Assembly (NCBI GenBank): GCA_014193115.1
Contig: BJHQ01000003.1
Location: 2,768 to 66,767 of the forward strand
Length of the DNA: 64,000 nt
Direction: 5' to 3'
Origin: Planctomycetota bacterium
Lineage (GTDB): Bacteria > Planctomycetota > UBA11346
A program made the position numbers and the translations under genes. Position 1 is the first letter of the stretch; each line of letters opens with the position of its first letter. Below are positions 42,136 to 64,000 of this stretch, one piece after another. A model generated the notes under the pieces. It was not told the DNA's origin, ran no database searches, and worked only from the letters and a program-made list of their open reading frames with translations.

Positions 42136-42184
42136 ATCTGACGGGCGCTCCCGGTCCCATGTCTGCCATGGATTGTTGAGCCCC

Positions 42185-46903: not shown

Positions 46904-47644
46904 TTAGGATGGTTTTATCAGGGAGAGGAGCCATCGCGTGGCTTCGAGATAGGCCAAGGCTCCTGCACAAAGTGGGTCGTAGGTCGTGATGGTTGCACTA
47001 TGGCTTGGTGCAGCAGCCAGCGAGGTATCGCGAGGGATGGGAACAGGTGCAATGTGATTGGGGAAGTGTTTGCCAATTTCAGCAAGGACCTGATGAGACA
47101 TGATGATGTCAGGATCAAACATGGTGACCAGGATGCCAGCAAGACGAAGCTGGAGCTGGGCGGTTATTCTTAATTGGTCAACATATGCCAGAAGTTGGCT
47201 CAGGCCCTCCAGGGCAAAATATTCACTTTGGAGGGGGATCAGCAGATAGTCAGCAGCAAGCAACGCGTTTGTTGGCAAAACGGTCAGGTTTGGAGGCGAA
47301 TCGATCAAAATAAGATCGAAGTGAGGCTGGTGCTGGACCAACAGGCTGGAGAGTGCCCTCCGGCCATCATGAGACTGTGCCAGGACTTGTTCACGATCCA
47401 GCAAGTCATTCCCGGCAACGATACAGCTGAGATTCGAGTGGGCGGTGGAGACAGGCTTTGCTCCGCCATAAATGGACGGACCCTCAACGTCAGGCGCCAA
47501 AACGCTAGAGGCATTCCCCTGTGGATCGTTGTCAACAACCAGCACGCGCTGGCCAGCAAGGGCAGCGAACGCAGCAACATTCACCACGGTCGTCGTTTTG
47601 CCAACGCCACCCTTTTGGTTGGCGACAGCAAGAATGGTGGCCAT
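46904..47644 (-). CDS. parA: chromosome partitioning ATPase ParA
   Basis: Deviant Walker A NQKGGVGKTTT. Start at MATILAV. GC content is conspicuously lower than in parB. Confidence 0.9.
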   Translation of the reverse strand: MATILAVANQKGGVGKTTTVVNVAAFAALAGQRVLVVDNDPQGNASSVLAPDVEGPSIYGGAKPVSTAHSNLSCIVAGNDLLDREQVLAQSHDGRRALSSLLVQHQPHFDLILIDSPPNLTVLPTNALLAADYLLIPLQSEYFALEGLSQLLAYVDQLRITAQLQLRLAGILVTMFDPDIIMSHQVLAEIGKHFPNHIAPVPIPRDTSLAAAPSHSATITTYDPLCAGALAYLEATRWLLSLIKPS

Positions 47645-47652
47645 GGCCAGAG

Positions 47653-47702
47653 GTTCTACGTGGAACACGCCGGTCAAGAGCCAAAGGCGTTCCACGTGGA
47701 AC
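47653..47702. promoter_or_regulatory. two parS-like palindromes (GTTCTACGTGGAAC at 47653-47666, GTTCCACGTGGAAC at 47689-47702)
   Basis: A 14-bp palindrome closely related to the canonical parS core TGTTTCACGTGAAACA. They lie 9 nt and 45 nt upstream of parA. Confidence 0.65.
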
Positions 47703-47864
47703 AGCAGGCTTTGAAAGACCATCCAAATATAGGTTCAAACAAACCTGTTCCGGTTTTGAGAGCTGTGAGTGCTGATAGCCGAGGACTTGCTAAGGCGCTG
47801 ATCCGATCGTAGGCTGGAAGACTCGGGATGCCTAGTTCCCATCGTCCTGCTGGAGCACGCCGTC

Positions 47865-48334: not shown

Positions 48335-50011
48335 ATGACTCCTGTCTCAACCGTCCCACCCCAGTTCTCCCGCGAAGCAGGGTCGTCGACCCGCTCACCG
48401 GTCGATAACATCCTGATCTTCGATACCACCTTGCGCGATGGCGAGCAATCGCCTGGCGCGTCGATGAACCTGACAGAAAAAGTCGAAGTCGCCCGCACCC
48501 TGGAGGGCCTGGGCGTGGATATCATTGAGGCCGGATTTCCGATCGCGTCGCCTGACGACTTCGCCGCGGTCCAGAGCATCGCCCGGGAAACCAGCCGGTC
48601 CCGGATTTGCGGACTGGCCCGAAGTGTCCGCGGCGACATCGAGCGCTGCGCCGACGCCGTCCGCCCGGCTGGCGCCCGGGCCCGAATCCACGTGTTCCTG
48701 GCGACCAGCGCCATCCATCGCCAGTTCAAGCTGAACAAGGCGAAAGAAGAGATCGTGCGCATGGCGCGGACTGCGGTCGAGCATGCCCGCAGCCTGATCG
48801 ACGATGTCGAGTTCTCCTGCGAGGACGCGAGCCGCACGGAGCCTGATTTCCTGTCGGAAGTGGTCGAGGCGGTGATCGCTGCAGGCGCGAGCACCGTGAA
48901 CATCCCCGACACCCTGGGCTATGCCTATCCCGAAGACTACGCGGCGCTGATCCGGCATTTGAAGCAGCGGGTCCGCGGCATCGACCAGGTGGTGATCAGC
49001 GTCCACTGCCACAACGATCTGGGTTTGGCGGTGGCCAACAGCCTGGCAGCGATCCGCGCCGGTGCCCGGCAGGTCGAATGCACCATCAATGGCATCGGCG
49101 AACGGGCCGGCAACTGCGCCATGGAAGAAGTCGTGATGGCGATGCGAGTCCGGCGGGACCAGTTCCCCGGCGCGGCCGGTCCGCTGTGGACCGGTATCGA
49201 CAGCACCAAGCTGTTCGGTGCCAGCCGCCTGGTCCAGTCGATCACCGGCCTGCCGTTGCAGCGCAACAAGGCCATCGTCGGCGACAATGCCTTTGCCCAC
49301 GAATCCGGAATTCATCAGGACGGGGTGATCAAGAATCCCGAATGCTATGAGATCATGACCCCCGCCTCAGTGGGCGTGCCAGCGACCAACCTGGTCCTGG
49401 GTAAGCACTCCGGCCGGGCCGCTCTGGCCAAACGATTCACCGACCTGGGGGTGGCGGTGGCTGACACCGATCTGGACCGGGTCTTCGCCGCGTTCAAGAC
49501 CTTGGCCGATCGGAAGAAAGAAATTTACGATGGCGATCTGATCGCCCTGGTCGAAGAGGTCGTCCGCGGCCACACCATCAGCGAATGGCGGTTGGACCAC
49601 CTGCACCATTCCGCCACCGCTGGCGAAGGCACCTCACCCAAGCTGGCGACGGCCACCGTCCGGCTGATCCGCGACGGCGAGGCCCGCACCGACGCGGCCA
49701 CCGGCGACGGCCCGGTTGAGGCCGTGGTGCTGGCGATGAACCGGATCTGCGGCATTTCCGGCACGGTCGAGGACTACCGCCTGCGCGCCGTGACCAAGGG
49801 CGGCGACGCCCAGGGCGAGGTCGCGATCCGGGCCAGGTTCACCCGCGTCGACCCGAGCCAGCCGGCGATCGTCGTCGGCGGTAAGGGGCTGAGCACCGAC
49901 ATCGTCCACGCCAGCGCCTTGGCCTGGCTCGACGCGATCAACCGCGCCGCGGTCTATCAGGCCCGGACTCTGGCCAGCCATCAGGCCCAAGCAGCGGCGC
50001 TGATCCCGTAA
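48335..50011 (+). CDS. leuA: 2-isopropylmalate synthase
   Basis: IFDTTLRDGEQSPGASM, HCHNDLGLAVANSLAAI and a C-terminal LeuA dimerisation/regulatory domain. Confidence 0.9.
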   Translation: MTPVSTVPPQFSREAGSSTRSPVDNILIFDTTLRDGEQSPGASMNLTEKVEVARTLEGLGVDIIEAGFPIASPDDFAAVQSIARETSRSRICGLARSVRGDIERCADAVRPAGARARIHVFLATSAIHRQFKLNKAKEEIVRMARTAVEHARSLIDDVEFSCEDASRTEPDFLSEVVEAVIAAGASTVNIPDTLGYAYPEDYAALIRHLKQRVRGIDQVVISVHCHNDLGLAVANSLAAIRAGARQVECTINGIGERAGNCAMEEVVMAMRVRRDQFPGAAGPLWTGIDSTKLFGASRLVQSITGLPLQRNKAIVGDNAFAHESGIHQDGVIKNPECYEIMTPASVGVPATNLVLGKHSGRAALAKRFTDLGVAVADTDLDRVFAAFKTLADRKKEIYDGDLIALVEEVVRGHTISEWRLDHLHHSATAGEGTSPKLATATVRLIRDGEARTDAATGDGPVEAVVLAMNRICGISGTVEDYRLRAVTKGGDAQGEVAIRARFTRVDPSQPAIVVGGKGLSTDIVHASALAWLDAINRAAVYQARTLASHQAQAAALIP

Positions 50012-50154: not shown

Positions 50155-51444
50155 TCAGGCCGGCAGAGTCACGGTGAACCGTGCCCCGCCCAGCGGTCCG
50201 TCCTCGACCGAGATCGCGCCTCCGTGCCCGGCGATCAGTGTGTGGGCGATGGCCAGGCCCAGGCCCGTTCCCTGGCTGCGGGTGGAATGGAACGGAGTGA
50301 ATAAATGCTGCCGCAGTTCAGGCGCGATGCCGGGGCCATCGTCATCGATGGTCAGGCGCAGGCGCAGGCCGCCGTCCTCGGCCAGGGCCTGGTCGGCGGT
50401 CACCACCACCCGTCCAGGCCCGCCTTCGCCGCCTTGGTCGCTGCGCGCCTCGGCCACTGCATGGACCGCATTCTGGACCAGGTTGAGCAGGACCTGGCGA
50501 ATCTGCCCTGGGTCGAGGGCGACCTCGCCGCCCTGCCAGCGGTCGGCCAGGGTCAACGCCACCTGGGGCGGAGCTTCTGCCCGGACCAGATCGCAGACTG
50601 CACGGGCCAGGTCGCCGGGAATCGTCGGCCGCCGATCCGGCGCCCGGGCCCGGGTGAAGGTCAACAGATCACCCACCGTCCGGTCGAGGTCGCGGACGCC
50701 GGCGCCGATCGCCTCGGCCCAGCGCCGGCGGCGGAGGGAATCGGGATCGTTTCCCGCCAGATCGTGGAGGAGCAGCGAGGCGAAACCCTGGATGCCGTTG
50801 AGCGGGTTGCGCACTTCGTGGGCGACGCCGGCAGCCATGGCGCCGAGCTGACGCAGGCGGTCTTCCCGTTCGAGGTGGTCGTGGAGGCGGCGCAGCTCGG
50901 TCACGTCTTCGAATATCTCGACGGCGCCGAGCAGCGTGGAGCCGACCGGCGACGCGCCCGGGGCGGCCGGCTCTGCCCGGACCGGCGCCGCAGAGCAGGC
51001 CAGGATCCGCTTGCCTCCGGGGCCGGGCACGGTCCTCTCATACCGCCTGGGCCGGCCATCGCGCAGCACCTCAAGCAGCGGACTGCCGGGGAAGGCCGTG
51101 GCCCAATGTGCGCCCACCGGATCGGCCAGAACCTTGCTGAGCGCCGCCGCCGCCGCTGGATTGCAGGTGGTGACCACGCCCAGGGGATCGACCGCGACCA
51201 CGCCCGAAGCCACCGAGCCGAGCACCAGGTCGAGCCAGGCGGTCAGCCGGTCGAGCTGGGCCAGACGTTCGGCCAGCTCGCGGTTGGCGGCGGTCAGCCG
51301 GGCATTGGCCTCGACCAGCTCGCGGGTCCGTGCCGACAACAGGCTTTCCAGGCGCTGGACCTGGGCCGCCAAAGCCCCGGTGGTCTCATCGAACAGGCGC
51401 AGGGCGGCAGCAAGATCGGGCAGCCCGGTCTGAGGTTCGTTCAT
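50155..51444 (-). CDS. sensor histidine kinase (coiled-coil, PAS, HisKA and HATPase domains)
   Basis: H-box AHEVRNPLNGIQGF and G-boxes DDGPGIAPE ... GTGLGLAIAHTLIAGHGG. Start chosen at MNEPQTG. Confidence 0.85.
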   Translation of the reverse strand: MNEPQTGLPDLAAALRLFDETTGALAAQVQRLESLLSARTRELVEANARLTAANRELAERLAQLDRLTAWLDLVLGSVASGVVAVDPLGVVTTCNPAAAAALSKVLADPVGAHWATAFPGSPLLEVLRDGRPRRYERTVPGPGGKRILACSAAPVRAEPAAPGASPVGSTLLGAVEIFEDVTELRRLHDHLEREDRLRQLGAMAAGVAHEVRNPLNGIQGFASLLLHDLAGNDPDSLRRRRWAEAIGAGVRDLDRTVGDLLTFTRARAPDRRPTIPGDLARAVCDLVRAEAPPQVALTLADRWQGGEVALDPGQIRQVLLNLVQNAVHAVAEARSDQGGEGGPGRVVVTADQALAEDGGLRLRLTIDDDGPGIAPELRQHLFTPFHSTRSQGTGLGLAIAHTLIAGHGGAISVEDGPLGGARFTVTLPA

Positions 51445-51614
51445 CCGCGGTCTCGGCACCAGAGATCCGCCTGGAAAACCCAGGCATGAACCGCCAGGAC
51501 GCCAGGGCGCCAAGGAATTCGGCTGGAACATCCCGCGAGGAACAGGGGCTTCCCTCGTGATCGACGCGATCGACGTGGTTGCAGCCCTGCGCAGCGGGGA
51601 CGTTCTTTGCCAGG

Positions 51615-51668
51615 CCCTGGCCGGTTGTGAGTCCCTGGCCGGTTGTGAGTCCCTGGCCGGGCTTGCGT
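51615..51668. repeat. 18-bp tandem repeat x3 (CCCTGGCCGGTTGTGAGT)
   Basis: Direct periodicity in the gap between the operon's last gene and the kinase gene. Confidence 0.8.
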
Positions 51669-51761
51669 CCCGGCATCGCGAAACCGGACATCCTCTCGCG
51701 GCACACAAAGAAAAGCTGGTGTCGATTGGGAGGTCACGACTGGTTCAAGCACGAAGCCGCC

Positions 51762-52103
51762 TTATCGCCGCAGGTCGAGGAACTTGCTGGCCTCTGGGCT
51801 TGATGGCACACCGTAGGCCCGGACCGCCCGTTCGACCTCTCCGGCATGATCCAGGTGCAGGCTCAGGCGCTGGCGGTGCTCGGCAAGCAGCTCCTGGGCC
51901 AGCGCCTGCAAGGCAACAGCCTCTTCGGCCTCGGCCAGCTGCCCGGCATCGGCGATGATCGCCCCGGCGACGGCGGCGGCGATCTGGTCGGCGAGGACAT
52001 CAAGCTGCTCGGCATCAGGATCTTCTTGGACCAGCAGGGCAACCACCTGGCGCAGGGCGTCGCGCGCGATGGCGAACGGACTCGGTGCGGCGGACTGGTT
52101 CAT
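51762..52103 (-). CDS. hypothetical helical protein (last gene of the large minus-strand operon)
   Basis: Start MNQSAAPS overlaps the upstream stop (ATGA). Confidence 0.45.
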   Translation of the reverse strand: MNQSAAPSPFAIARDALRQVVALLVQEDPDAEQLDVLADQIAAAVAGAIIADAGQLAEAEEAVALQALAQELLAEHRQRLSLHLDHAGEVERAVRAYGVPSSPEASKFLDLRR

Positions 52104-52951
52104 GGCAGCGTGCTGGTGATGGCCTGGGCGGCCGGTCCGAGATCGCTGGTCGGCCACGTCAGAAGAAAGGCAGCGATGGCAGCGCGCACCGCCGCCGCCG
52201 CCTCCGCTTTGACCGCCGGCTCGGCGCGGCGGGCCTGTTCCGCCTGGAACCACAACCGCAGGTAGGCGACTTTCGGACGGTCGGCACGATCCAGGCCAAG
52301 ATCCTCGATCCGTTCGAGTGCGGCCAGTCCGTCGGCGAGATCGTTGGCGACGTGGTCACCGCCCGCCGCAACCAGGTCGCGGCAGCACTCGGCGATGGCC
52401 AGACGGTTGGCTGCGGCCAGCACCGGCGCCTGCCGGGCAGTGACCGCCGGACGGGCCTGGTCGAGGGGATCGGTGGAATGGCGCGTGGAACGGCCGGCGA
52501 ATTCGGCCATCGCCGCACGCAGGGACTCCCGGGCCACGTCGCGACCGCCTTTGGCCGCGACGATGTCGGGCTGTTCAGCGATCTCGCGCAGCCCTCCGCG
52601 GCCGGGGACGATCGGCCGGGTGGATGCCGCGCCGAGACCGGCGATGGCCTGGTCGCGGCTGCGGATCGCCGCATCGATCCGGCGCAGCAGCAGGTCGGTG
52701 GGATCGCCGCCACTCGGTTCGCCGGTGGAGGGCAGGGCCGGCGCCAGCCGCGGCTGGGGAGGCAAGGGCGGCGCCCCAGGCTCGGCTGAGGCGCCAGAAC
52801 CCAGCAGCAGAAAACCCAGCAGCAGAGAACACAGCAGCGGACAGCCGCCCGCAGCACTCCACCTGGGCGGTGCTCCCGCCCGCCGCCCAGGCATCCCGCG
52901 CGCCTCCGCGGAGTTGCGTCTTGGTGGTCGGTCGGCAGCGCCGAGGTTCAT
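52100..52951 (-). CDS. secreted hypothetical protein
   Basis: Signal peptide CPLLCSLLLGFLLLGSGASA. ATGA overlap with the upstream gene. Confidence 0.5.
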   Translation of the reverse strand: MNLGAADRPPRRNSAEARGMPGRRAGAPPRWSAAGGCPLLCSLLLGFLLLGSGASAEPGAPPLPPQPRLAPALPSTGEPSGGDPTDLLLRRIDAAIRSRDQAIAGLGAASTRPIVPGRGGLREIAEQPDIVAAKGGRDVARESLRAAMAEFAGRSTRHSTDPLDQARPAVTARQAPVLAAANRLAIAECCRDLVAAGGDHVANDLADGLAALERIEDLGLDRADRPKVAYLRLWFQAEQARRAEPAVKAEAAAAVRAAIAAFLLTWPTSDLGPAAQAITSTLP

Positions 52952-55092
52952 GGCGCCTCCCCGCGATAGGCTTTGATCGCCTCGCGCAGCCGGCCGTTGG
53001 CCCGGTGGTGATCGCCGAGGATGCGGGCGGCGAGCTCGCGGTCGCGGTCGCCGAGCAGCGGATCGGCCATCAAATCGGTCAACGAGGTCAGGGCGACGCT
53101 CTCCTGCCCAGCGACCAGGGCGCAGCGGGCTCGGCCGATGATCGCGGCGTGGCGCAGGGCCGCCGGCGGGGATTCATCGAGCACCCGCTGATAATAGCCC
53201 ATCGCGGTTCCGGCCAGCACCGCCTGCTGGGTACGATCGCGCTCGGCCTGGTGCCATGCGGCCTGGGCCAGGTAGAACAGCACCCGGGCCCGCACCGGTC
53301 CGGGATGGTCGCCGAGCTTGCTGACCAGGGCAGCAACCAGCTCATCGAGCTGCAACGACGGCTCCCGCCGATCCGCCAACGCGTCGCCACGGAGCAGTTC
53401 CCACAGCGCCGCCACCGCCGCATCGGTGCGCTCCAGCTCGGCATAGCACCGGGCGATGGCGACCAGCAGCTCGGCATCGAGGTCGGTGCGGGGAAAATCC
53501 TGGCGGGCGCGGAGGAAGGCGAACAACGCCTCGACGGTGCGCGAGGCCTGGGCAGCCGGCGGCGGCTGGGACGTTCCTGGCGAAGCGCGCGCCGCCGCTG
53601 GCGGAGCATGGGCCGCACCAGCGCTCGCTGAACCGCCAGCGCCATGGGGCTGGGCAGGCGAAGGGGCCGCTGGCGCCGAGGCGAGCAGACACAACCCGAC
53701 CCGCAGGGCGCAGCGGGCGTAGGCTTCGATGGCGATGTCGGGCCGGCCGTCCCCTTTGGCCCAGGCCAGATGCAACCGGCGGTAGATCGCAAGCGCTTCG
53801 CCGAAGCGGCCAGCGCCATAGGCGCAATCGGCGGCCAGGATCTGCAGCCGCTGGGGCATGCGTTCGATGTGCAGGCCCGCGGCCTCTCGCCACTTGTCGA
53901 GGTGGATGGCGGCCTCGGCCCAGCGACCGGCAGCGTGCAGCATCTCGGCCAGGCGCAGCCGGGCAGCGGCGACGTCGGCAGCCGCCCACGGTTCGTCGGC
54001 GAACCGTTCGAGCAGCAGGTGCAGGTCATCCATCGCCTCATCGCGGGCGATCGGGTCGGCGTGGCGGGTGGCCTGGGCCTCGCCGGCCGCGGCTGCCGCC
54101 AGGAACACTCCAGGCAGGTCGTGGTCGTCATTGCCGGCCCGGGCGATGTAGTTGCGGTAGACCCCGCGGGCATCGAGGTGGTTGCCAAGTGCGGCCATGC
54201 AGTCGCCGATCCCGCGGATCCCCGACTGGACCCACCGCCGCACCGCCGGATCGGCGGAGCCGCTGAAGCCGTCGACCAGCGCTCCGTACAGTTCGATGGC
54301 CGCGACATTGCGCCGGCCGTCCTGTTCGATCCGTGCTCGGCGATAGGCGGCCTCGGCGGCGGCGCCCGGGTCGCGATCCGACGGGCTCCAGGTCGAGGCC
54401 CGTTCATAGGCGCGCTCGGCGCGGCGCCGGTCACCGGGGGCGTCGCTCGCGGCCGAGCGTGCCGCGGAGACCACGATCCTCCGGGTCCGCGCATCGGGGT
54501 CATCGCGCCAGGCCAGGCCGGCGGCGCCGCACAGCCGGTCGAGCACGTCGTCCAGGTCGAGGCCGCTGACCATCAGGGTCACCGGCCGGGTGCGACCCGG
54601 AGCGTTGGCATCATCGATCACCACGCCGCACAGCCCGGCCAGCTCGGCCAGCACCTCTTCCATGGCTGCGCCGCGCAGGCTGGCAGAGATCTTTCCGCTC
54701 GCGATCGATAGTCCGGGCAGGCGACGGCTCTGCTGGTCATTGGCAGCCGCGGTCGTCCGAGCAGCAGGGCCGGGGGCGGCCGGCTCCACCGCCACCAGGC
54801 CCTTGGCCTGGGCCTCGCGCAGGCGTTCCCGGGCGGCGCGCAGCGCGGCGAGATCGTCGGCCAGGGCAGGACGCTGAGCCGTCTGGGCCGGACCGGCCGA
54901 ACCCACCAGCTGCATCGGCCGTGGAACCGGCTCCAAGGTCGGTTGCAGACCGGGCTCGGCAGCCAGGACCGGGCCGGAAACCAGGGTGTACCACACCACG
55001 CTCACCAACCAGGCAGGCGCCATCGAAAAAGCGCCTGGGCCGAAACCAGCGCGCGCAGTCGGCATTCCCGGGGATTTTCCTTGTTCAGCCAT
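52948..55092 (-). CDS. secreted TPR-repeat protein with an N-terminal STN-like (secretin/TonB N-terminus) module
   Basis: Signal peptide MAPAWLVSVVWYTLVSGPVLAAEP. An STN-like block (ISASLRGAAMEEVLAELAGLCGVVID) is followed by long TPR-like helical repeats. Start ATGGCTGA overlaps the upstream stop. Confidence 0.6.
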   Translation of the reverse strand: MAEQGKSPGMPTARAGFGPGAFSMAPAWLVSVVWYTLVSGPVLAAEPGLQPTLEPVPRPMQLVGSAGPAQTAQRPALADDLAALRAARERLREAQAKGLVAVEPAAPGPAARTTAAANDQQSRRLPGLSIASGKISASLRGAAMEEVLAELAGLCGVVIDDANAPGRTRPVTLMVSGLDLDDVLDRLCGAAGLAWRDDPDARTRRIVVSAARSAASDAPGDRRRAERAYERASTWSPSDRDPGAAAEAAYRRARIEQDGRRNVAAIELYGALVDGFSGSADPAVRRWVQSGIRGIGDCMAALGNHLDARGVYRNYIARAGNDDHDLPGVFLAAAAAGEAQATRHADPIARDEAMDDLHLLLERFADEPWAAADVAAARLRLAEMLHAAGRWAEAAIHLDKWREAAGLHIERMPQRLQILAADCAYGAGRFGEALAIYRRLHLAWAKGDGRPDIAIEAYARCALRVGLCLLASAPAAPSPAQPHGAGGSASAGAAHAPPAAARASPGTSQPPPAAQASRTVEALFAFLRARQDFPRTDLDAELLVAIARCYAELERTDAAVAALWELLRGDALADRREPSLQLDELVAALVSKLGDHPGPVRARVLFYLAQAAWHQAERDRTQQAVLAGTAMGYYQRVLDESPPAALRHAAIIGRARCALVAGQESVALTSLTDLMADPLLGDRDRELAARILGDHHRANGRLREAIKAYRGEAP

Positions 55093-56752
55093 GGCCGTGC
55101 TCCGCGGCATGGGCAGCCGGGGCATGACCGGCATCATGGCCCGCGGCCGGTTCAGCCGGTCCATGGCCGGGTTCATGCTTATGGTCGTGTTCGGCCGGTT
55201 CGCGCTGGACCGTGGCGGGGGCCGGCTGTTCCAGCAGCCTGCCGAGCATCAGGTAGGCGCGGTGCACGGCCTGGCGGTTGCGGACCAACTCCGCACCAGA
55301 GCGCGAGCCGCCGCCGGGCAGGCGCTCCGCCACCCACGAATCCTCCTCGGCAAGCACGTTGTAGACCACCGCCAAGGCTCCGGCCCGATCGTTGGCCTGG
55401 GCCAGGCTGTCAGCGTGGTCGAGATGCAGGCCGGGGTCCGTGAACGGCGGATTTCCCGGCTCGCCGGCCAAGGCGAAGGCGGCGGCGGCGCGGCCATGGT
55501 CGCCCTGGGTGCGATGGGTGCGTGCCAGCACCAGGCTGATTTCGGCGGCGTGGGCGGGATGGCGTTGGCGCAACCGTTCGAGCAGCATCACTCCCCTGGC
55601 AACGGCATCGCCGTCGCCGCTCGCCAGCCGGGCCAGGGCCGTGGCGAAGTCTTCGGCGTAGCTGTCGGTTGGAACGGTTGAGGTCGCGACCCGGGTCCGA
55701 CGCAGCTCGCCCGCCAGATCGCCCAGCCGCACCACCGTGATCGACAAGGTGGTGGCGCAGATCGACAAGGCGACCACCGCCGCGGCGAGCAGCCAGCGGG
55801 CGCCGCGCAGTTCGATCGGAGCCGCCGCCGGGACCAGACCGGGATAGGCCATGGGCTGCGGGGTCGGAGTCGGGGCGATGCCCAGCACCTGGCGCACGTC
55901 CACTGCATCGCTGGTCACGCCAGGCGCCGGAGCGTTCTGCGCCAGCATCTTGTCGATGGCGCCTTCGTGCTTGGCCAGGTCGGCGGCGGCAGGGGCGGGT
56001 TGGCGGGCCTCGTTCGGACCGGGCGTACTGTCAGTGAGCTGCTGGAGCAGGGCATCGATGTCGCTCTGGGCGATGATCCCGGTCGACGTCCGGGTGTCCT
56101 GTTTGCCGCCCTGTTTGGCGACCAGCGCATCGACCTCTTCGGTGGACAGGTTGAGGATCGGCTTGGTGTCGGGCGTCGCCATCCCGGCTTTGCTGCCCGA
56201 AGCCGGGGCGCTGACCGAGCCGGTGCCAGTCGAAGCCGGGGACCTGACCGAGCCGGTGCCGGCCGCAGCCGAGCCGGGTTCACCGGTCGGATTGGGCGTC
56301 ACCGCCGAGGTCGTCCGCGGAGCGCTCGCCGGCGCGGCGCTTCCTGGTGTGGTCAGCGCCGCGGTCTCCGGTCCGGCCGGCGTGGCGGCCGAACTCAGCT
56401 CAGCCAGCAGCCGGTCGATGTCTGAAACGCCAGCCGAGCTGGTACCAGGAGCCGGAGGCGGCGCATCGTCGCGGGTCTCGGCCGCGGCCCGTTCGGCCTT
56501 GTGCGCCCCGGACAGTTGGGCGAGCAGGGCGTCGATATCCGCGGCATTGCCCGACGGGCTGCCAGCGGAGGACGACCCGCGGTCGTCGGCGGAATCGCCT
56601 CCAGGCTGGGCAAGCAATTGCTCGCTGTTGGTCCCCGCATCGGCCCGGGGGGCTTTCGCGTCGCTGTGCCCGCCCACGTCCCCGCCCAGCGCCGCAAGCA
56701 GGGCGTCGATCTCCTCCGTGCTGGGGGCGTCTGCCACGGGTGTCCCTCGCAT
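55085..56752 (-). CDS. FimV-like protein: acidic (E/D)IDALLAxL repeats, a single TM, a TPR domain and a His-rich C-terminal tail
   Basis: Five copies of xIDALLxxL, TM WLLAAAVVALSICATTLSITVV, then a TPR-like region. It ends in HDHKHEPGHGP...HAAEHGHG. Confidence 0.55.
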   Translation of the reverse strand: MRGTPVADAPSTEEIDALLAALGGDVGGHSDAKAPRADAGTNSEQLLAQPGGDSADDRGSSSAGSPSGNAADIDALLAQLSGAHKAERAAAETRDDAPPPAPGTSSAGVSDIDRLLAELSSAATPAGPETAALTTPGSAAPASAPRTTSAVTPNPTGEPGSAAAGTGSVRSPASTGTGSVSAPASGSKAGMATPDTKPILNLSTEEVDALVAKQGGKQDTRTSTGIIAQSDIDALLQQLTDSTPGPNEARQPAPAAADLAKHEGAIDKMLAQNAPAPGVTSDAVDVRQVLGIAPTPTPQPMAYPGLVPAAAPIELRGARWLLAAAVVALSICATTLSITVVRLGDLAGELRRTRVATSTVPTDSYAEDFATALARLASGDGDAVARGVMLLERLRQRHPAHAAEISLVLARTHRTQGDHGRAAAAFALAGEPGNPPFTDPGLHLDHADSLAQANDRAGALAVVYNVLAEEDSWVAERLPGGGSRSGAELVRNRQAVHRAYLMLGRLLEQPAPATVQREPAEHDHKHEPGHGPAEPAAGHDAGHAPAAHAAEHGHG

Positions 56753-56921
56753 TCCTCGACAGAGTCGGCTGCCAACCCCGACGACGCACGGACCATGCCA
56801 TGGTCACCGGGAAGCGCCCGAGGGACATCCGCCGTACCTAGTCTACCACCGATCCGGGAGCCCGGTCCAACGGGTTCCCGGGCAGCGGCGGCCAGCCGCC
56901 GATGAGCGCAGCGACTCGTCG

Positions 56922-59105
56922 CTAGGCCTCAACCAGCATCACGACCTCTTCGTTGAACACCGCCTTGGGGTCGATCTGGGCATCAGCAATCGACGACTTC
57001 ATCGCCTGGTCGCTGGAGACGAAGAACCGGGCGTGGGCGCTGGCGCCGTCGGCACGGCGGACCTCCAGATCGTTGCCGTCGGCGACGGATTGCCCGACCT
57101 GGGCTGGGCGGGCGTTGATCCACAGCGCGGCGCCATCGGCCAAGGCGCCGACGACCACGCCGCTCCGGGTGGCGCGGAAGGTCACCTGCTCGGCGAATTC
57201 CGGGACTCCGAACGAGGTTGCGGATTGCCGTCCGGGCAGGCCGCTGAGCGGATCGAGCCGGCCGGCGATGCGCAGGACCTCGGCCTTGAACCGCGGCCGG
57301 GTCAGCCACCACCACAGGAAAAGCGCGAGCAGGGCGAGCAGGATCAGCAGCAGGCCGAGGATGATCGGCAGCCAATCGCGATCGACCCGCAGGGTCAGCG
57401 ACTTGCCGGCGATGGCCTTGACGTCAGCGGATTCGATCGCGGCAGCGCTGGCCGAACCCGGACCGGTGGCAGAGATCCGGACTTTTTGCGGCGGTTTCAG
57501 GTCCCAGGCGCCGAGCTCCTTGGTGGTGAAGGTGATTTCGCCGGTCCAGCCCCGAGCCACCGCCGGATCGCGCTGGAGAGCCACCGTGCGTTCGCCGCCC
57601 TCGGCCCGGGTGAGCACGACGTCGAGCGCTTGCAGCGGAACCCGGCCGCCGGCCTGGCGCAGGTCGAGCCGGATCGGCCGTCCGGCGATCACCGCCGCTG
57701 GTTCGCCTTTGTCGCCGAGCGGGAAACCGCCGAGCAGGGTCAACCGGCCGAGGGCCATCCACTTCAGATCGAGCGGACGAGCATCGGTGCGGTCCTTCCA
57801 TGCGGCATTGGGCACCAGGCTGACCCGGCCCTTGCCGTCGCCAGTGGGCAGGATCACGCCGATCAGCTGCTGGAGCAGCGGTTCCGTGGTCGCGCCGTCG
57901 ATGGCCAGGGCCAGCCGGGCGTCCTTTTCCAGTTCGGTGCGCAGCGCGTCGCTGACCGCGGTCTCGCCGGGGGCCCGGGTCCAGGTGTGGGTCAGTTTCA
58001 GCGCATCGCCGCCGAACAGGCTGTCCGTGTCCAGGCCCGGGCCGAGGGCCAGGCGATGGGCGACCCGCTGGGGCGCCTGGATCAGGATTTCGCAGGGCCG
58101 CGGCTGAGCGGCCGCGTCAGCGGCGGTGCGGCGCAGCAGATAGGCGCCGCCGGCCTCGACTCCGGCCAAGCGATAGACCCGGCAGGGGCCGCTGTCGTCG
58201 ATCCGCGTCACCCGCGGCTCGGTGGCGACCGCGGCCTTGCCGGCATCGGCACCAGCTTTGCCGGCATCGGTACCAGCCTTGCCGGTATCGGCCGTGGCGT
58301 CCTTCGCGGTGGGCAGCTCCTTGCCATCCGGGCCGATGAAGCTGACTGTGAAGTCCGTGTATGGACCGGGCACGTGAAGCCAGATCAGGGCCCCGCGATT
58401 GGCCTCGGGGATGGCGACCGGGGCGTCGCCGGGGGCGGCCACGGTCAAACCGGTCGGCTGGGGCACACCGAGGGCGGTCAAGGCCGGCAGCAAGGTTTTC
58501 AGCTCAAGCGTGCGCAGATTGAGACGCTGGGCGTCGGGTCGCAGCTCGGCGATCCAGCTCAGCGCTGAATCCGGCCGGGGCGAGGCCACGGTGTCGAGCA
58601 GCAGCCAGCGGCGATGGGCGGCTTTCACCGCCGACAGCTTCGGCTCCAGGGCGGTCTGCCGGGCGGCGGTGTTGATCTGGTCGCGGCTGGCATCGGCGCC
58701 GGCCGCGGTGAGCAGCGCGGGATCGGTGTCGGTCGGCGAGCCGACGACCTCGGTCAGGCCGTCGCCGGCGATCACGGTCAGCACCGGGCCGGATTCCGGG
58801 GCGGTCAGCCAGGACACGGCTTTTGGATAATCGGCCCAGCGTCCGGCATAGGTCGCAGCGCCCAGGTCGGGGCCCGGCTCGCCAGTTCGGGCGAAGGTGA
58901 CGGCCTCGATTTTCTTGGCATCGATTGGGGTCAGCAGGTGCTGCTGGAGGAAGCGCAGGCGATCGATAACGGCCTTGTCGGCCGTGGTCCGCGAGCCATC
59001 GACCGCGATCGCCGCCTGAACCACCGGCGCCGGCGGCGCGGGTTCACCAGGGAACGCCGCTGCGAAGAGCATCGCCAGGAGCAGGAGGCCACGCCAAGTC
59101 GACAT
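56922..59105 (-). CDS. large secreted protein (728 aa), function unknown
   Basis: Signal peptide MSTWRGLLLLAMLFAAAFPGEP. High GC3. Contains an in-frame 21-bp x3 repeat (58238-58300). The ORF-track N-terminal extension is read-through of the tandem repeats. Confidence 0.6.
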   Translation of the reverse strand: MSTWRGLLLLAMLFAAAFPGEPAPPAPVVQAAIAVDGSRTTADKAVIDRLRFLQQHLLTPIDAKKIEAVTFARTGEPGPDLGAATYAGRWADYPKAVSWLTAPESGPVLTVIAGDGLTEVVGSPTDTDPALLTAAGADASRDQINTAARQTALEPKLSAVKAAHRRWLLLDTVASPRPDSALSWIAELRPDAQRLNLRTLELKTLLPALTALGVPQPTGLTVAAPGDAPVAIPEANRGALIWLHVPGPYTDFTVSFIGPDGKELPTAKDATADTGKAGTDAGKAGADAGKAAVATEPRVTRIDDSGPCRVYRLAGVEAGGAYLLRRTAADAAAQPRPCEILIQAPQRVAHRLALGPGLDTDSLFGGDALKLTHTWTRAPGETAVSDALRTELEKDARLALAIDGATTEPLLQQLIGVILPTGDGKGRVSLVPNAAWKDRTDARPLDLKWMALGRLTLLGGFPLGDKGEPAAVIAGRPIRLDLRQAGGRVPLQALDVVLTRAEGGERTVALQRDPAVARGWTGEITFTTKELGAWDLKPPQKVRISATGPGSASAAAIESADVKAIAGKSLTLRVDRDWLPIILGLLLILLALLALFLWWWLTRPRFKAEVLRIAGRLDPLSGLPGRQSATSFGVPEFAEQVTFRATRSGVVVGALADGAALWINARPAQVGQSVADGNDLEVRRADGASAHARFFVSSDQAMKSSIADAQIDPKAVFNEEVVMLVEA

Positions 59106-59180
59106 GGAGAACCCCCAGCAACTGGACATCACATGGCCTTCGACGCTCTGGGGTTGAGATATCACATCATGAACGAAACA

Positions 59181-59675
59181 GGGGCCCCGTCGCGCGAGCG
59201 ATGGGGCGGGCGCCGAGGGACGGTGGGCGGATAAAATGGGCGCAGCCCATCCGCCCACTTTTCCGGCTGCGCAGCAGTCGAAAAAGAGTCCCGACAAAGC
59301 CCGGGGGTAGGCCCGCAGGGCCGTAGGGGCGAAGCCCCTGGTGAAGGGGCCCCGTCGCGCGAGCGATGGGGCGGGCGCCGAGGGACGGTGGGCGGATAAA
59401 ATGGGCGCAGCCCATCCGCCCACTTTTCCGGCTGCGCAGCAGTCGAAAAAGAGTCGCGACAAAGCCCGGGGGTAGGCCCGTAGGGCCGTAGGGGCGAAGC
59501 CCCTGGTGAAGGGGCCCCGTCGCGCGAGCGATGGGGCGGGCGCCGAGGGACGGTGGGCGGATACAATGGGCGCAGCCCATCCGCCCACTTTTCCGGCTGC
59601 GCAGCAGTCGAAAAAGAGTCGCGACAAAGCCCGGGGGTAGGCCCGTAGGGCCGTAGGGGCGAGGCCCCTGGGTAA
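59181..59675. repeat. three tandem copies of a 165-bp hairpin-rich element (about 98% identical)
   Basis: Copies lie at 59181-59345, 59346-59510 and 59511-59675. Each unit carries CCCCGTCGC-GCGA-GCGATGGGG (GNRA tetraloop), the nested GTGGGCGGAT...ATGGGCGCAGCCCAT...ATCCGCCCAC, the palindromes GCTGCGCAGC and GTCGCGAC, and the hairpins GGCCCGTAGGGCC and GGGGCGAAGCCCC. Confidence 0.9.
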
Positions 59676-59680
59676 AAAGC

Positions 59681-62152
59681 TCATGGCAGCGTCACGATCA
59701 CGGGCCGGGTGTAGACCTCGGCGTCGCCGACGTCGGGCTTGAAGGTGATCGTGGCGGTTCCGGCGTAGTCACCGCTCGGGACTTTGCGCGGACGCAGCAC
59801 GTCGATCTTGATCGTCCCCGAGCTGCCGACTTCGAGCCGGTTCGGGGTGGCGGTGGCGCGCAGGTCGTAGGCCGCGGTCAGGACCTCGCCCTCAGGGCCG
59901 ACCAGGTCCGAGACCTTGACCTTCCACTCGCCGCTGATGCCGCTGTCGAGGGCGATCGGCACGGTCTTGGCAAGCCAGGCGTTTTCCTGCCAGGCGCCGG
60001 GCTTGGGTTCGGCGATCTTGATCGTGCCGCTGGCCTCGCCGCCGCCGTCACCGGTGGTGGCATCGCCATCGCCCAGGCGCAGCTTGGTCTTGGAGCGGAC
60101 ATGCTGATAGACCACCGGCACTGATCGCGGCGGCAGCTCGCCGAAACGGAGCTCGGCGGTGCCGCGGTATTCGCCGGGAGCGGTCGCGATCGGCACTGCG
60201 CCGACCACTTTGCCGCTGCTATCATAGGTGAAACTCAACGTGCCCGGGCCTTGCACGGTCAGCGAACCGGGTTGCAGGGCCTGGGCCGGCAGATCGCGGT
60301 GGCCGGGGCTGGACGCGGCCAGGGTCGGCTCGTCGGTATTGGGTTTCAATCGGCGTTCGGCGCCGTCGAACGGATAATTGAGCGCGGTGATCGCCGACGT
60401 GCGCAGCGGCTCGTCGGGTTTGGCCGGAGCCGGCGGCGGTGGCGTGCCGGCCGGCCGCGGCGTCGAGGCGGTGGCGGTGTGGCGACCGGCGATCTCGCTG
60501 CGGAAACGCACCGCCAAGGTGCCCTGGCCGGGAACGGTGAGCGGTTGCGGAAAGCTGAATCCGCCCTGGGCGGGAAAACTGAGGGTGCCGGCGGGACCGC
60601 TGGCGGCGACCGCCACTGTGCCGCTGGTCTCCAGGTTCACCCAGGTCGGCGGCAGCTGATAGGCATCAGCGCCCCAGGCCAGGGCCACCGGTTCGAGTTT
60701 CGGCGGCGGTGGCGGCGGCGCCTTCAGCTGCGGATCAACGACGAAGGTGTCCTGCTTGGTCAGCACCGCCTGGCCGCCATAGGTCAGCCGATACGTGACC
60801 CGCAGCTGGTGTGGCCGGCTGCGATCGGTGTTGGCCGCCAAGGCGGTCGCCCACGGCGCCGAATAGCGGGGCAGATCACTGGGTTTGTCGGTACGCGGCA
60901 GATTGGCGCGGTGCAGCGGCTGGCCGCCGGCGGTGTCGTCGGTGATGGTGCAGTCGACCTGGGTGCGGTCGGCGAAACGGCGCAGAGCGTCGAGCTGGTA
61001 ACCGATCCCGCTGACCTCGACCCCGGGCTGGACCACGGCACCCTCGGCCACCGGCGACGGGATGGCGATGGGCGTGGCGCGGATGCCGAGCTGCATCGCC
61101 ACATAGATGTTGCGCGGAACCCCATCGAACTGTGGCCGCCACGAGCCTGGCGGCGGTTCGCCCACCGACACGCATTCCACGTTGGTCCGGCTGCGCTCGG
61201 CATCCTCGGCCTTGGGATAGCGGTAGACCAGGGCGCCGCCGATGGCATCGATGCCGCCATCCACCGGCAGAGCGGTGATCCGGCCACGGCGGCTGCGCTG
61301 GTCGTTCTTGACCACCGCCACGGTCAGCCGAGCGCCGCCCGGCGGCACGTCGAAGGCGTCGCCAGGCTGGAAGCGGCTGGTGTCATAGACGAAGACGTCG
61401 TTTTCATCGGCCAGGATGGCGAAGAACCGGTCGACCAGCTGGTCGGCGCTGGTTACCTCGATGTGCCGGCCGCGGGTGATGGCGGCGATCTCGCCCAGGG
61501 TCGGCTTCGACGCCTTGCCCTCGGGGTTTAGGCGCAGGCAGTCGAGCACCCAGCCGCGATCAGCGAACCGCCGGGCCTGGTCGAGGCTGTCCCGGGGCTC
61601 GTCGCTGGGATCGCCGTCGGTGAAGAACAGCACCCGGGTGCCGGCCGGGGCGCGGACCCGGTCGAGCTCGCCATAAGCGGCGGCCAAAGCCCGGGCGTAG
61701 TTCGTGGCCCAGCCGTCGAAGGTCAGCTTGTCGTCGATGATCTCACGGGCGGCGACCCGATCGCCGATGGTCGCGAGCGGCCGGGTCGGCATGTGGACCT
61801 CGCCGTTGCGGCCGAAGCCGACGACCGCCACCGGCTTGCCGTCGCGCATGGTGCCGATCGCCAACTGCACGCCATCGACGGTGTAGCGCTTGGGATCGTT
61901 CTCGCGCATCGATCCGGATTGATCAACGATCATCAGCAGCGGCCGCTCCGACACGTCCACCGCAGTCAGGGCAGCGGCGAGCAGGAGGGATCCGCCGAGC
62001 CGCCAAGCCGCCAAGGAGTTCAGGCCCATCGTCGCGCCGCCCACCGGAGCGCCGACCTGCCGGCCCGCACCCAGTCCGACCATCGTTGTCCCGGAAGCCT
62101 TTGCGCCCTGGAGCCTTGGCGTTTCCACAGCGGGGCGAATGTGCGGTTCCAT
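59681..62152 (-). CDS. secreted von Willebrand factor A (vWA) domain protein with a large beta-rich C-terminal region
   Basis: Signal/TM MGLNSLAAWRLGGSLLLAAAL. MIDAS motif LLMIVDQSGSMREND plus VLFFTDGDPSD. Start chosen at MEPHIRP, 12 nt after the upstream stop. The ORF is open to 62188. Confidence 0.7.
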   Translation of the reverse strand: MEPHIRPAVETPRLQGAKASGTTMVGLGAGRQVGAPVGGATMGLNSLAAWRLGGSLLLAAALTAVDVSERPLLMIVDQSGSMRENDPKRYTVDGVQLAIGTMRDGKPVAVVGFGRNGEVHMPTRPLATIGDRVAAREIIDDKLTFDGWATNYARALAAAYGELDRVRAPAGTRVLFFTDGDPSDEPRDSLDQARRFADRGWVLDCLRLNPEGKASKPTLGEIAAITRGRHIEVTSADQLVDRFFAILADENDVFVYDTSRFQPGDAFDVPPGGARLTVAVVKNDQRSRRGRITALPVDGGIDAIGGALVYRYPKAEDAERSRTNVECVSVGEPPPGSWRPQFDGVPRNIYVAMQLGIRATPIAIPSPVAEGAVVQPGVEVSGIGYQLDALRRFADRTQVDCTITDDTAGGQPLHRANLPRTDKPSDLPRYSAPWATALAANTDRSRPHQLRVTYRLTYGGQAVLTKQDTFVVDPQLKAPPPPPPKLEPVALAWGADAYQLPPTWVNLETSGTVAVAASGPAGTLSFPAQGGFSFPQPLTVPGQGTLAVRFRSEIAGRHTATASTPRPAGTPPPPAPAKPDEPLRTSAITALNYPFDGAERRLKPNTDEPTLAASSPGHRDLPAQALQPGSLTVQGPGTLSFTYDSSGKVVGAVPIATAPGEYRGTAELRFGELPPRSVPVVYQHVRSKTKLRLGDGDATTGDGGGEASGTIKIAEPKPGAWQENAWLAKTVPIALDSGISGEWKVKVSDLVGPEGEVLTAAYDLRATATPNRLEVGSSGTIKIDVLRPRKVPSGDYAGTATITFKPDVGDAEVYTRPVIVTLP

Positions 62153-62163
62153 ACGATCTCCGG

Positions 62164-63213
62164 TCAGGCGGCGGTGATGACGATGCATTTTTGGATGGGC
62201 AGGCCAGTCTGGTCGGCCAGACCGAGCTGACGCAGGCCGATCACGGTCCCGGCCGGCGCGCCGGCGCCGGGGCGCTCCACCCGATCGAAGCGCTTGGGGT
62301 CGTGGCGCTCAGGGTCGAAGCGCTCGCCCGCGGGAATGAGCAGCGGGCGCAGGCCGGCTTCGCGCAACCGGTCGAGGACCGTCTTCGCCGCTGGTGTGTC
62401 TGCGCGCTCGGCATGTCGAGTGTGCAGGTTCAGCACCGCCCGCAGATCAATGGCGGCCGGCAGCAGGCACAGCTCGACGCCCCGGGCGAGGTCGTCGCGC
62501 AGCGGTTTGCGCCATTGGGTGGCGAGGGCGGCGTACAGTTCCTCCAGCAGTCCCCAGGCGGCGATCCGCTCTGGCGATGGCGCGGGGTCGGGCAGCACCG
62601 CCTGGCCGGCGCGGACCACCGTGCCGCCCGCATCGACCAGGCCGGTGGTCACCACCACGGCCCGGGCCACCGGCAGGCGCATCGGTTGGGCCGGCGGTGT
62701 TTCGACCGGATCCACCAGCCGGAACGGCGCGAGCAGCGGAATAAGATCGCGGCGGATCTCGGCCAGGGCGGCGTGCAGCCGGGCATAGGCCGCGCCCAGG
62801 TAAAAACCGCCCAATTTATCGCAGAATGCCAACACATCGCCGGCCCGCTGGGCGAGAGCCGGACCAGCCGCGACCAGCACCGGCCGGGCCTTGGTCAAGA
62901 AGGCGGATTCCGCCGGATCAACCTGGGGACCGGATTCCGCCAAGGTTTTCGCAAGCAGTTCGAGGTGATCGCAGAGCACCGCCAGCGGCGAAGAAGTGGC
63001 AGGAGGCGCGGCTGGTGCCACGGGCGGCTCGCCAGCGGAAAGGATTGGGACCACGGCCGGGACGTGTGCAGCCGCAACGGGAGCTGGCGGGATTTCCCGT
63101 TGTTCCAGTGCGGCACGCAATTCCTGCGCGAGCGCCGCGACCTCGTCCAACGCGGTGCGGGCGCGAGCGAGGGCTGCGTCGTGGCGGGCGAGGAGATGGG
63201 CCAGGTCAGGCAT
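62164..63213 (-). CDS. GrpE-domain protein (long N-terminal coiled coil plus GrpE-like C-terminal beta domain)
   Basis: C-terminal GERFDPERHDPKRFDRVE...GTVIGLRQLGL...IQKCIVIT matches the GrpE signature region (GEPFDPNLHEA...V.V). Confidence 0.55.
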   Translation of the reverse strand: MPDLAHLLARHDAALARARTALDEVAALAQELRAALEQREIPPAPVAAAHVPAVVPILSAGEPPVAPAAPPATSSPLAVLCDHLELLAKTLAESGPQVDPAESAFLTKARPVLVAAGPALAQRAGDVLAFCDKLGGFYLGAAYARLHAALAEIRRDLIPLLAPFRLVDPVETPPAQPMRLPVARAVVVTTGLVDAGGTVVRAGQAVLPDPAPSPERIAAWGLLEELYAALATQWRKPLRDDLARGVELCLLPAAIDLRAVLNLHTRHAERADTPAAKTVLDRLREAGLRPLLIPAGERFDPERHDPKRFDRVERPGAGAPAGTVIGLRQLGLADQTGLPIQKCIVITAA

Positions 63214-63227
63214 GGATCAGCGCGTCA

Positions 63228-63496
63228 GCGTTCCTGGGAGCGCCGAGCGCCAGCTCGGCCCGCATGTGATTGTGCGAGATGGATCCACTTCCAGGCGAGC
63301 TGGGGCTCGCCTCTCCCAGCCAAATCCCTCCAAACTCCAGCCGAGAGGCGTTCGGCGCTCCCGGGCAAGTCCAACCAAATCCAGCTCCAGCCGAGCAGGC
63401 GCTCGGCGCTCCCAGCAAACTCCAGCCGAGCAGGCGCTCGGCGCTCCCAGGCAAGTCCAATCCAACGCAAGGAGAGCTGGGGCTCGCCTCTCCCAG
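63228..63496. promoter_or_regulatory. repeat array in the promoter region of the GrpE-domain operon
   Basis: Three direct copies of about 38 bp containing GGCG(C/T)TCGGCGCTCCC at 63344-63458, plus an inverted copy GGGAGCGCCGAGCGCC at 63236-63251, 23 nt upstream of the ATG. The array is bracketed by two copies of G(C/A)GAGCTGGGGCTCGCCTCTCCCAG. Confidence 0.6.
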
Positions 63497-63670
63497 TTAA
63501 ATCGATCCGCTGGTGCGTGGACCCCGCGAAGGGGTCCCCCAAGCGTAGCGAGAGGGGGTGGAGCAGGCGCCGCCTTCTGGCGGCAGCAGGCCAAAGGCCT
63601 GCGACCTTCGCAGCGCGGAGCGCAGCGGAGCTGGAGCAGGGCCGAAGGCCCGTGGGGGGGAACCCCCATG

Positions 63671-64000
63671 CTAATGCACTCCGCCAAAAGGATTTTCGGC
63701 GTCAGGGACCGATTCCGCGCTGGCCTTGAGGCGGTGCCAGGTGGTGCCGTCGGCGCGGACCGCGGCCAGTTCGCGGTTCTTGTCCATCACCAGGACCAGG
63801 GCGAAGGCTCCGGCCAGGGCCTCCAGATGGACCTGGATTTCCTGGGTGAACTGGCCGGACCAGGGTTCGGCCTCGGGCTTGGCCAGGTCGAACCAGCCGA
63901 GGGTGGTCGGCTGGACTTCGGCCATCGGCCCGGCGCTGGCCGGATCGAGTCCGAGCAGGTGGTCGTGGTAATAGGCGAACAGCGACAGCTCGGTGGCCTT
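63671..64000 (-). CDS. hypothetical protein, C-terminal part (the N-terminus lies beyond the window)
   Basis: Open frame with high GC3 running to the window edge. No recognisable motif. Confidence 0.4.
   Translation of the reverse strand, partial: KATELSLFAYYHDHLLGLDPASAGPMAEVQPTTLGWFDLAKPEAEPWSGQFTQEIQVHLEALAGAFALVLVMDKNRELAAVRADGTTWHRLKASAESVPDAENPFGGVH

Follow-up and report, generated by a model that had tools for sequence, protein, structure and literature searches.

Relation to described systems

Gene neighborhoods that combine a GTPase with HSP70, GrpE, vWA and kinase components have been predicted to be conflict systems of the GAP1-N2 type (Kaur, Burroughs, Iyer and Aravind 2020, eLife, PMC7159879, section 29). 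These systems are known from computation only, have FGS components and are in some cases planctomycete. Their DO-GTPase belongs to a novel TRAFAC family, usually carries N-terminal zinc ribbons, often occurs in two copies and has GAP1 encoded downstream; dynamin is not mentioned in that work. A bacterial link between Hsp70 and dynamin-like proteins (DLPs) is suggested by Nostoc, where a DnaJ-like domain fused to a DLP is encoded beside BDLP1 (PMC6104087). Here we describe a minus-strand gene cluster located at the end of a 64,000-nt stretch of DNA (the window) from LBMAG53, a metagenome-assembled genome (MAG) of the Planctomycetota with a GC content of ~70%. Comparison with related loci identified a conserved core of six genes, which encode, in this order, a pseudokinase, a dynamin-like GTPase, an Hsp70, a GrpE-like protein, a vWA protein that is secreted and its membrane-anchored paralog (p735). 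Downstream of the core lie four further genes, encoding p550, p691, p264 and p113.

The cluster resembles the predicted conflict systems in having a GTPase, an HSP70 together with GrpE, vWA and kinase-fold proteins, membrane or extracellular components and, in relatives, FGS, as well as in being built from a conserved core and a variable cassette and in being known only computationally. It differs from them in its GTPase, which is Dynamin_N/LeoA-like and not a DO-GTPase, is present as a single copy and has neither a Cys-rich N-terminus nor zinc ribbons, and also in its catalytically dead kinase and the absence of an FNIII-repeat or DnaJ component. Directly downstream of the GTPase lies the Hsp70 gene, and no core gene is left unassigned that could be GAP1, although no search with a GAP1 profile was made. 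The features shared with the DnaK-GrpE pair are the C-terminal GrpE fold, the nucleotide-binding domain (NBD) and the beta substrate-binding domain (SBD-beta) of Hsp70, and the adjacency of the two genes. In contrast to that pair, the GrpE-like protein is roughly double in length, contains an additional middle domain and scores far below the Pfam and NCBIfam cut-offs, while the Hsp70 has a beta-sandwich and an insertion in its NBD, lacks the lid and has no DnaJ encoded alongside. Like the bacterial DLPs BDLP1, DynA, Cj-DLP1/2, LeoABC/Eleos and SynDLP, the GTPase is large and has the dynamin P-loop and a DLPG motif, but it stands alone, and Hsp70, GrpE-like, pseudokinase and paired vWA partners have not been described for DLP systems. 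Eleos (LeoA/LeoBC) was considered and rejected, as no second DLP is encoded and the sole LeoBC match was weak (5.5e-4) and fell on the same protein as the LeoA match.

An original prediction, restricted to genes within the window, had likened the locus to parts of Bat and FimV/HubP assemblies, but without the MoxR and DUF58 partners of these. As in Bat/MoxR-vWA operons, exported or membrane vWA proteins are encoded beside TPR-like proteins and an NTPase chaperone; however, the NTPases are here an Hsp70 and a dynamin-like GTPase, and conservation of the vWA genes does not extend to the TPR-like ones. With FimV/HubP, p550 has in common only acidic repeats and a single transmembrane (TM) helix, and neither analogy was supported by any profile search. 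Two other statements of the prediction stood: no AAA+ (MoxR) or DUF58 match was found among the ten cluster proteins, and the combination of genes was not found described in the literature and curated family libraries that were searched and has no system-level model in NCBIfam or PADLOC.

Extent of the cluster and conservation of its core

The public metagenome scaffold L001 (170 kb) is 100% identical to the window, repeat copy number aside, as found by an exact-match look-up of the 349-aa GrpE-like protein, and gene boundaries were taken from the public gene calls on this scaffold. The NCBI name of the cluster Hsp70 is LBMAG53_10260 (Planctomycetota bacterium). Seven co-directional open reading frames (ORFs) were found on the minus strand at 51762-63213, as had been predicted. 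These are regarded as real genes because their codon-position GC (GC3 0.74-0.85, GC2 0.52-0.62) is typical of coding sequence in a genome of ~70% GC. However, the unit does not begin at 63213. The C-terminal tail of Hsp70 is encoded at the very end of the window (Table 1), and on L001 the genes for an 875-aa Hsp70, a 749-aa dynamin-like GTPase and a 286-aa kinase-fold protein lie upstream of the GrpE-like gene. The seven genes are the downstream part of a cluster that extends past the window end, and this truncation had led to a wrong outline of the operon. The NTPase partner that seemed to be lacking was missed through a window-edge artefact, and the GrpE domain, which had been considered unusual in this setting, is fully explained by the adjoining atypical Hsp70.

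Start/stop overlaps of 4-8 nt had been ascribed to all of the genes. Such overlaps were confirmed only among the four distal genes (ATGGCTGA at 55085-55092, ATGA at 52948-52951 and ATGA at 52100-52103), whereas the other genes are separated by 457 nt (Hsp70/GrpE-like), 11 nt (GrpE-like/vWA), 551 nt (vWA/p735) and 184 nt (p735/p550). The ATGA at 59681-59684 is the start of an ORF that runs through a repeat block; the overlap is spurious because this block has flat codon-position GC and is non-coding, and the true start of p735 is at 59129.

Related loci were gathered via homologs of the GrpE-like protein and Hsp70 and compared by tblastn. The Hsp70 gene adjoins the GrpE-like gene in all 15 loci, and all nine informative loci have a vWA gene downstream. 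In six of the seven informative loci the dynamin-like gene precedes that of Hsp70; it is itself preceded by the kinase-fold gene in all five loci where this could be read. Orthologs of p735 are present in L006, L010, L011 and L014. This core synteny holds at Hsp70 identities from 65% down to 30% and rules out chance adjacency of the core genes. The sizes of the products are ~290 aa for the pseudokinase, ~750 aa for the GTPase, ~850-880 aa for Hsp70 and ~350-440 aa for the GrpE-like protein. The conservation of the neighborhood, which had been put forward as a check, was thus confirmed for the GrpE-like, vWA and p735 genes together with those upstream, but not for p550, p691, p264 and p113. In two distant loci the module stops after the vWA genes, and Sua5/RpiB are found upstream in common in two distant loci. 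All source-named relatives belong to the Planctomycetota. The family is small, with 51 GrpE-like relatives among 1.84 billion representative proteins in a profile search and 67 Hsp70 clusters.

The GrpE-like protein, Hsp70, GTPase and pseudokinase

In the AlphaFold2 (AF2) model of the GrpE-like protein (seven homologs; pLDDT 81.6 overall, >85 across aa 210-349), a long helix (aa 3-38) and a middle domain precede a GrpE fold at aa ~214-349. By sequence the protein stays below the curated GrpE cut-offs (PF01025/NCBIfam), with no Pfam match at E<=0.1 and 14.8 bits against NCBIfam GrpE NF010752 (cut-off 194; E 0.013). A Foldseek search of the PDB with the model ranked GrpE structures first to seventh, including 1dkg, 3a6m and 9bls (E 0.011-0.17, prob 0.54-1.00); the next match had an E of only 1.6. 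Ten of 39 scanned members of the extended family match Pfam GrpE at E<=0.01 (best 4e-7), and hhalign placed aa 257-349 of the family in register onto residues 102-196 of E. coli GrpE (E 7e-4). Based on these three lines of evidence and the adjoining Hsp70 in 15/15 loci, the similarity is judged to be real though very divergent. The C-terminal GrpE-like domain of the original prediction was thereby borne out. We predict that the GrpE-like protein serves as a nucleotide-exchange factor dedicated to the adjoining Hsp70.

The 875-aa protein matches Pfam HSP70 (6.9e-13) and shows the actin-like NBD with phosphate motifs and the substrate-binding beta domain that characterize Hsp70s; the ATPase motifs DFGTTN, DFGGGT and GNSARLP are intact in the NBD. 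In its AF2 model (pLDDT 85), a beta-sandwich at the N-terminus (aa 1-108) precedes an NBD that bears a helical insertion of ~250 aa; an SBD-beta is present, but the helical lid is missing. The top Foldseek matches were full-length DnaK/BiP (E 1.5e-20 over ~795 columns), and NCBIfam gave weak HscA matches. The 749-aa GTPase was assigned from Dynamin_N (3.5e-14) and PADLOC LeoA (1.5e-20) matches in addition to its motifs, and its best PDB sequence match is SynDLP Slr0869. None of the six orthologs of the kinase-fold protein has kept the Asp of the HRD motif (HGN/HGC/HGA instead), and four carry Arg in place of the beta3 Lys. Because the catalytic Asp is missing throughout, the protein is a conserved pseudokinase, which may still bind nucleotide as the DFG Asp is kept.

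The exported vWA proteins

The assignment of the 823-aa protein as a vWA protein was confirmed by a match to Pfam VWA_2 (7e-10) and by a match of the family profile to extracellular vWA structures in the PDB (5.6e-12). The metal ion-dependent adhesion site (MIDAS) is complete, with DQSGS at aa 77-81 followed by the T and D positions, and D77, S79, S81, T150 and D179 are invariant in orthologs. The next gene had been predicted to encode a 728-aa secreted protein. Its product, p735, does have a signal peptide, but it is anchored by a TM helix, has a cytoplasmic tail and represents a divergent paralog of the vWA protein. A word-indexed homolog search with p735 recovered the query alone. The p735 family aligned with the vWA family in hhalign (prob 90%, E 1.5e-6, aa 11-271 onto 46-302), and Pfam VWA_2 was matched by two of five aligned relatives, both distant orthologs (2.6e-5), while the MIDAS-like motif is degenerate (DGSRT). 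The TM helix at aa 587-605 is followed by a conserved ~125-aa tail predicted to be cytoplasmic, and p735 appears to be the only membrane-spanning component of the core. An FHA domain was suspected in the tail from the pattern G..TSYG...TRxG...VN...GNDLE; the idea was dropped since profile searches gave no significant match and also because the partner kinase is catalytically dead. A tail profile from four orthologs gave only unrelated reductases in the PDB (best E 0.29), and nothing was matched in Pfam at E<=10.

The distal cassette

No counterpart of p550, p691, p264 or p113 was found in any related locus examined, and the four genes form a lineage-specific cassette that appears, from their overlapping starts and stops, to be translationally coupled. 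In the closest relatives (L006, L011 and L014) the same position is taken by an FGE-sulfatase-fold protein and a ~900-aa protein, the genes of which are absent from the whole window.

The acidic N-terminal region of p550 (55800-56737) contains five to six xIDALLxxL motifs with the pattern [ST]x[ED][ED][IV]DALLxxL, and 10 of the last 60 residues are His. The motifs, the single TM helix and the His-rich tail had all been described correctly. The TPR domain is weakly supported (TPR_16, E 0.006-0.017, below the Pfam cut-offs), and the FimV-like label was not sustained, as neither LysM nor the FimV C-terminal motif (TIGR03504/03505) was matched in NCBIfam or Pfam at E<=0.1. The xIDALLxxL motifs resemble the CheY-binding peptides of the FliM N-terminus and the CheZ C-terminus, but a CheY-binding role found no support. 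No receiver domain is encoded nearby, the neighboring histidine kinase does not accompany the cluster in relatives, and a literature search on the "EIDALL" motif returned nothing relevant. A similar sequence, ADIDNL, is held by the disordered acidic insertion of Hsp70. For p691, described previously as STN-like, no STN match (PF07660) was obtained at E<=0.1, nor at E<=10 with the isolated 93-aa segment; the only matches were weak and TPR_6/PorW/YbgF-like (E 0.002-0.03). Searches of p550 and p691 against PDB sequences were empty, and neither p264 nor p113 matched any family. For the last small ORF the most likely start is the ATGA at 52103, which gives a product of 113 aa, not 163. This call is uncertain, as the public annotation has an ORF on the plus strand (51846-52265) and both the junction sequence and the codon-position GC are ambiguous between the strands; the translation of the plus-strand ORF resembles antisense noise.

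Intergenic inserts and genomic context

The 457-nt region between the Hsp70 and GrpE-like genes is GC-rich, contains two exact copies of GGGAGCGCCGAGCGCCTGCTCGGCTGGAG and is predicted to fold strongly as RNA (z = -5.9). In relatives this gap measures from a few to ~110 nt and holds no equivalent. The insert may be an element of the repetitive extragenic palindromic (REP) or miniature inverted-repeat transposable element (MITE) type that could affect operon polarity. The block of 165-bp repeats reported earlier was recovered by Tandem Repeats Finder (TRF), but is intergenic. Its codon-position GC is flat (0.665/0.681/0.703), each of the three units forms a strong hairpin (RNA fold z = -4.25), and such units are absent elsewhere in the window. 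The window assembly and the ENA scaffold L001 (13543-13926), which come from the same organism, differ in the copy number or arrangement of the repeat. The genes flanking this position abut in L014 and overlap slightly in L006, and the repeat appears to be a lineage-specific insert.

An Rfam scan of the window gave zero matches and a promoter consensus scan gave 0 promoters. Twelve terminator-like sites were found against a shuffled mean of 5.5 ± 2.8, that is ~2 sd above it; neither consensus scan was informative. The surroundings consist of housekeeping genes (parA, parB, leuA and purK), and from this context the cluster may be located near the chromosome partition/origin region. An AtoS/NtrB-like sensor kinase (E 9.5e-62) is encoded directly downstream of the cluster, with no adjacent response regulator and no counterpart in related loci. 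On the other side, upstream of the window, L001 encodes a 1005-aa protein that carries the zinc-metalloprotease motif HELAHH and PD40 beta-propeller repeats, has a C-terminus (...FQW) resembling outer-membrane barrels and is not conserved with the cluster in relatives. More distant GrpE-like/Hsp70 pairs were seen in a Gammaproteobacteria MAG, where the gene order is reversed, and in other metagenome contigs; at least in L021 no dynamin-like gene was detectable. These pairs hint at a wider set of private Hsp70/exchange-factor pairs.

Table 1. Location of the cluster genes, inserts and neighboring features. Positions are those of the window unless a scaffold is named.
Feature	Position	Strand	Remarks
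Kinase-fold protein, 286 aa	L001 3516-4376		Upstream of window; Pkinase 5.5e-20
Hsp70, C-terminal 109 aa (SBD-beta part)	63671-64000	-	Cut by window end; L001 gene 6916-9543
Structured insert, 457 nt	63214-63670	-	Hairpin repeats (REP-like), between Hsp70 and GrpE-like genes
GrpE-like protein, 349 aa	62164-63213	-	Long N-terminal helix, family-specific middle domain, C-terminal GrpE fold
Secreted vWA protein, 823 aa	59681-62152	-	Signal-like N-terminal hydrophobic segment, vWA domain, ~600 aa beta-rich
Tandem repeat, 165 bp x 3	59180-59671	.	TRF 3.0 copies, 98% matches; intergenic, non-coding
p735, membrane-anchored vWA paralog	56922-59129	-	Signal peptide, degenerate vWA domain, beta-rich region, TM helix, tail
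p550, bitopic	55085-56737	-	Acidic N-terminal ~315 aa, TM helix aa 318-336, TPR-like region, His-rich tail
p691, secreted helical-repeat protein	52948-55023	-	714 aa if start at ATGGCTGA overlap, 55092
p264, small	52100-52894	-	N-terminal hydrophobic signal-like segment aa 14-32; L001 public gene call
p113, probable small Ala/Glu/Leu-rich helical protein	51762-52103	-	Starts at ATGA overlapping p264 stop
FGE-sulfatase-fold protein (~476 aa, weakly EgtB-like) and ~900-aa protein	L014 18190-22322; L011 15017-18942; L006 5653-7941		Directly after p735 ortholog
Sensor kinase	50155-51708	-	PAS/HisKA/HATPase_c
leuA	48335-50011	+	Housekeeping
parA	46904-47722	-	Housekeeping
parB	45941-46888	-	Housekeeping
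purK	42101-43267	+	Housekeeping
1005-aa protein	L001 358-3375		Upstream of window
Distant GrpE-like/Hsp70 pairs	L012 2061-3311; L021 1605-4099; L022 194-2608		

Possible function of the cluster

We tentatively favor a reading, to which we give a little less than an even chance, in which the cluster is an envelope-linked, GTP- and ATP-driven module for membrane remodelling or a defence-like purpose, and in which it probably couples envelope events to membrane remodelling. The two vWA proteins would make up a unit that binds ligands in the periplasm in a metal-dependent manner and is held at the inner membrane by the TM helix of p735, and the cytoplasmic tail of p735 would mark the site on the inner face at which the dynamin-like GTPase could remodel or seal the membrane. 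The GrpE-like protein would recycle its neighboring, dedicated Hsp70 as nucleotide-exchange factor, and the ATP cycle of the two would assemble, activate or disassemble a complex of the GTPase and the pseudokinase, with the latter serving as a scaffold. There are precedents for Hsp70s acting on membrane-remodelling polymers, as Hsc70 uncoats clathrin (PMC4436892) and cpHsc70-1 controls VIPP1 oligomers (PMC12798727). As its likely role, the module would respond in an accessory capacity to invasion or to damage of the envelope; a defence-like or stress function of this accessory kind is favored because the family is rare, the distal cassette is variable and FGE-sulfatase-fold genes occur in relatives.

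Several observations weigh against this proposal. The biological role is pure inference, and the signal peptides and topology of the exported proteins were read from sequence alone. The cytoplasmic tail of p735 matched nothing in the PDB or Pfam, and its link to Hsp70 or the GTPase is hypothetical. No J-domain (HPD motif) was found in any of the ten cluster proteins, and most bacterial DLPs act as pairs (PMC6104087), whereas the cluster encodes one. Moreover, the genes lie among housekeeping genes (leuA, parAB) and not in a recognizable defence island, and PADLOC recognized no system in the cluster.

The genes for Hsp70, the GrpE-like protein and both exported vWA proteins are strictly co-linear, which could instead mean that the chaperone pair serves only to keep the large beta-rich vWA proteins export-competent or to fold and assemble them, in which case the cluster would be an operon for an adhesin or surface structure and the GTPase an accessory. 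The modelled SBD-beta would be capable of binding extended peptides, and specialised Hsp70s with a single client are known, among them HscA, to which the cluster Hsp70 shows its weak NCBIfam matches. We consider such a biogenesis role unlikely, as it explains neither the equal conservation of the dynamin-like GTPase and the pseudokinase (5-6 informative loci) nor that of the p735 tail, and no J-protein is present to deliver clients. That the cluster properly belongs to the systems of Kaur et al., as an antiviral or abortive-infection module with a conserved core and swappable effectors (p550-p113), is likewise doubtful. This reading agrees with the planctomycete neighborhoods in which HSP70 and GrpE, vWA, kinase and FGS components are combined (PMC7159879), with the FGE-sulfatase-fold gene of relatives and the changing distal cassette, with the rarity of both the GrpE-like protein and Hsp70, and with the LeoA-like match of the GTPase. 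The defining DO-GTPase and GAP1 are nevertheless absent, the GTPase being single, of dynamin type and free of zinc ribbons, and no nuclease, pore or other recognizable effector is encoded. The Sua5/RpiB context of two distant loci suggests a stable chromosomal position and, together with the leuA/parAB flanks, argues against a highly mobile island.

The envelope scaffold, adhesion or metal-responsive assembly of the Bat/FimV/HubP kind that was suggested originally, comprising the seven window genes and no NTPase, is hardly credible any longer. In its favor are the vWA proteins, the weakly TPR-like ones, the His-rich tail and the acidic repeats. Against it stand the NTPase genes directly upstream, which are conserved alongside those for the vWA proteins, and the lack of matches to FimV, LysM, STN, BatA-D, MoxR and DUF58. 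No relative has the TPR, His-tail and repeat proteins, so these cannot define the system. Synteny has already largely refuted this scaffold. We also regard as very unlikely a reading in which the cluster is a bacterial equivalent of receptor-linked membrane trafficking. In this reading the cytoplasmic tail of a periplasmic vWA receptor would recruit the dynamin-like GTPase for membrane invagination or scission, and the dedicated Hsp70/GrpE pair would recycle the assembly much as Hsc70 recycles clathrin coats.

In the membrane-remodelling or defence-like module that we favor, six conserved genes join exported vWA proteins to two nucleotide-driven machines that seldom occur together in bacteria, namely a dynamin-like GTPase and an Hsp70 that has its own exchange factor. 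The module offers a tractable bacterial case of an Hsp70 at work on membrane-remodelling machinery, which is now known mainly from clathrin uncoating and VIPP1, and it extends the GTPase/chaperone/vWA systems, all of them computational predictions, by a branch based on dynamin. The repertoire of chaperones gains a GrpE family that has diverged strongly and an Hsp70 that lacks the lid and bears an insertion. For the cell biology of planctomycetes, whose membrane dynamics are disputed, the cluster provides a concrete set of genes, and, if it were true, the trafficking reading would make it a candidate basis for their debated endocytosis-like or membrane-invagination behavior.

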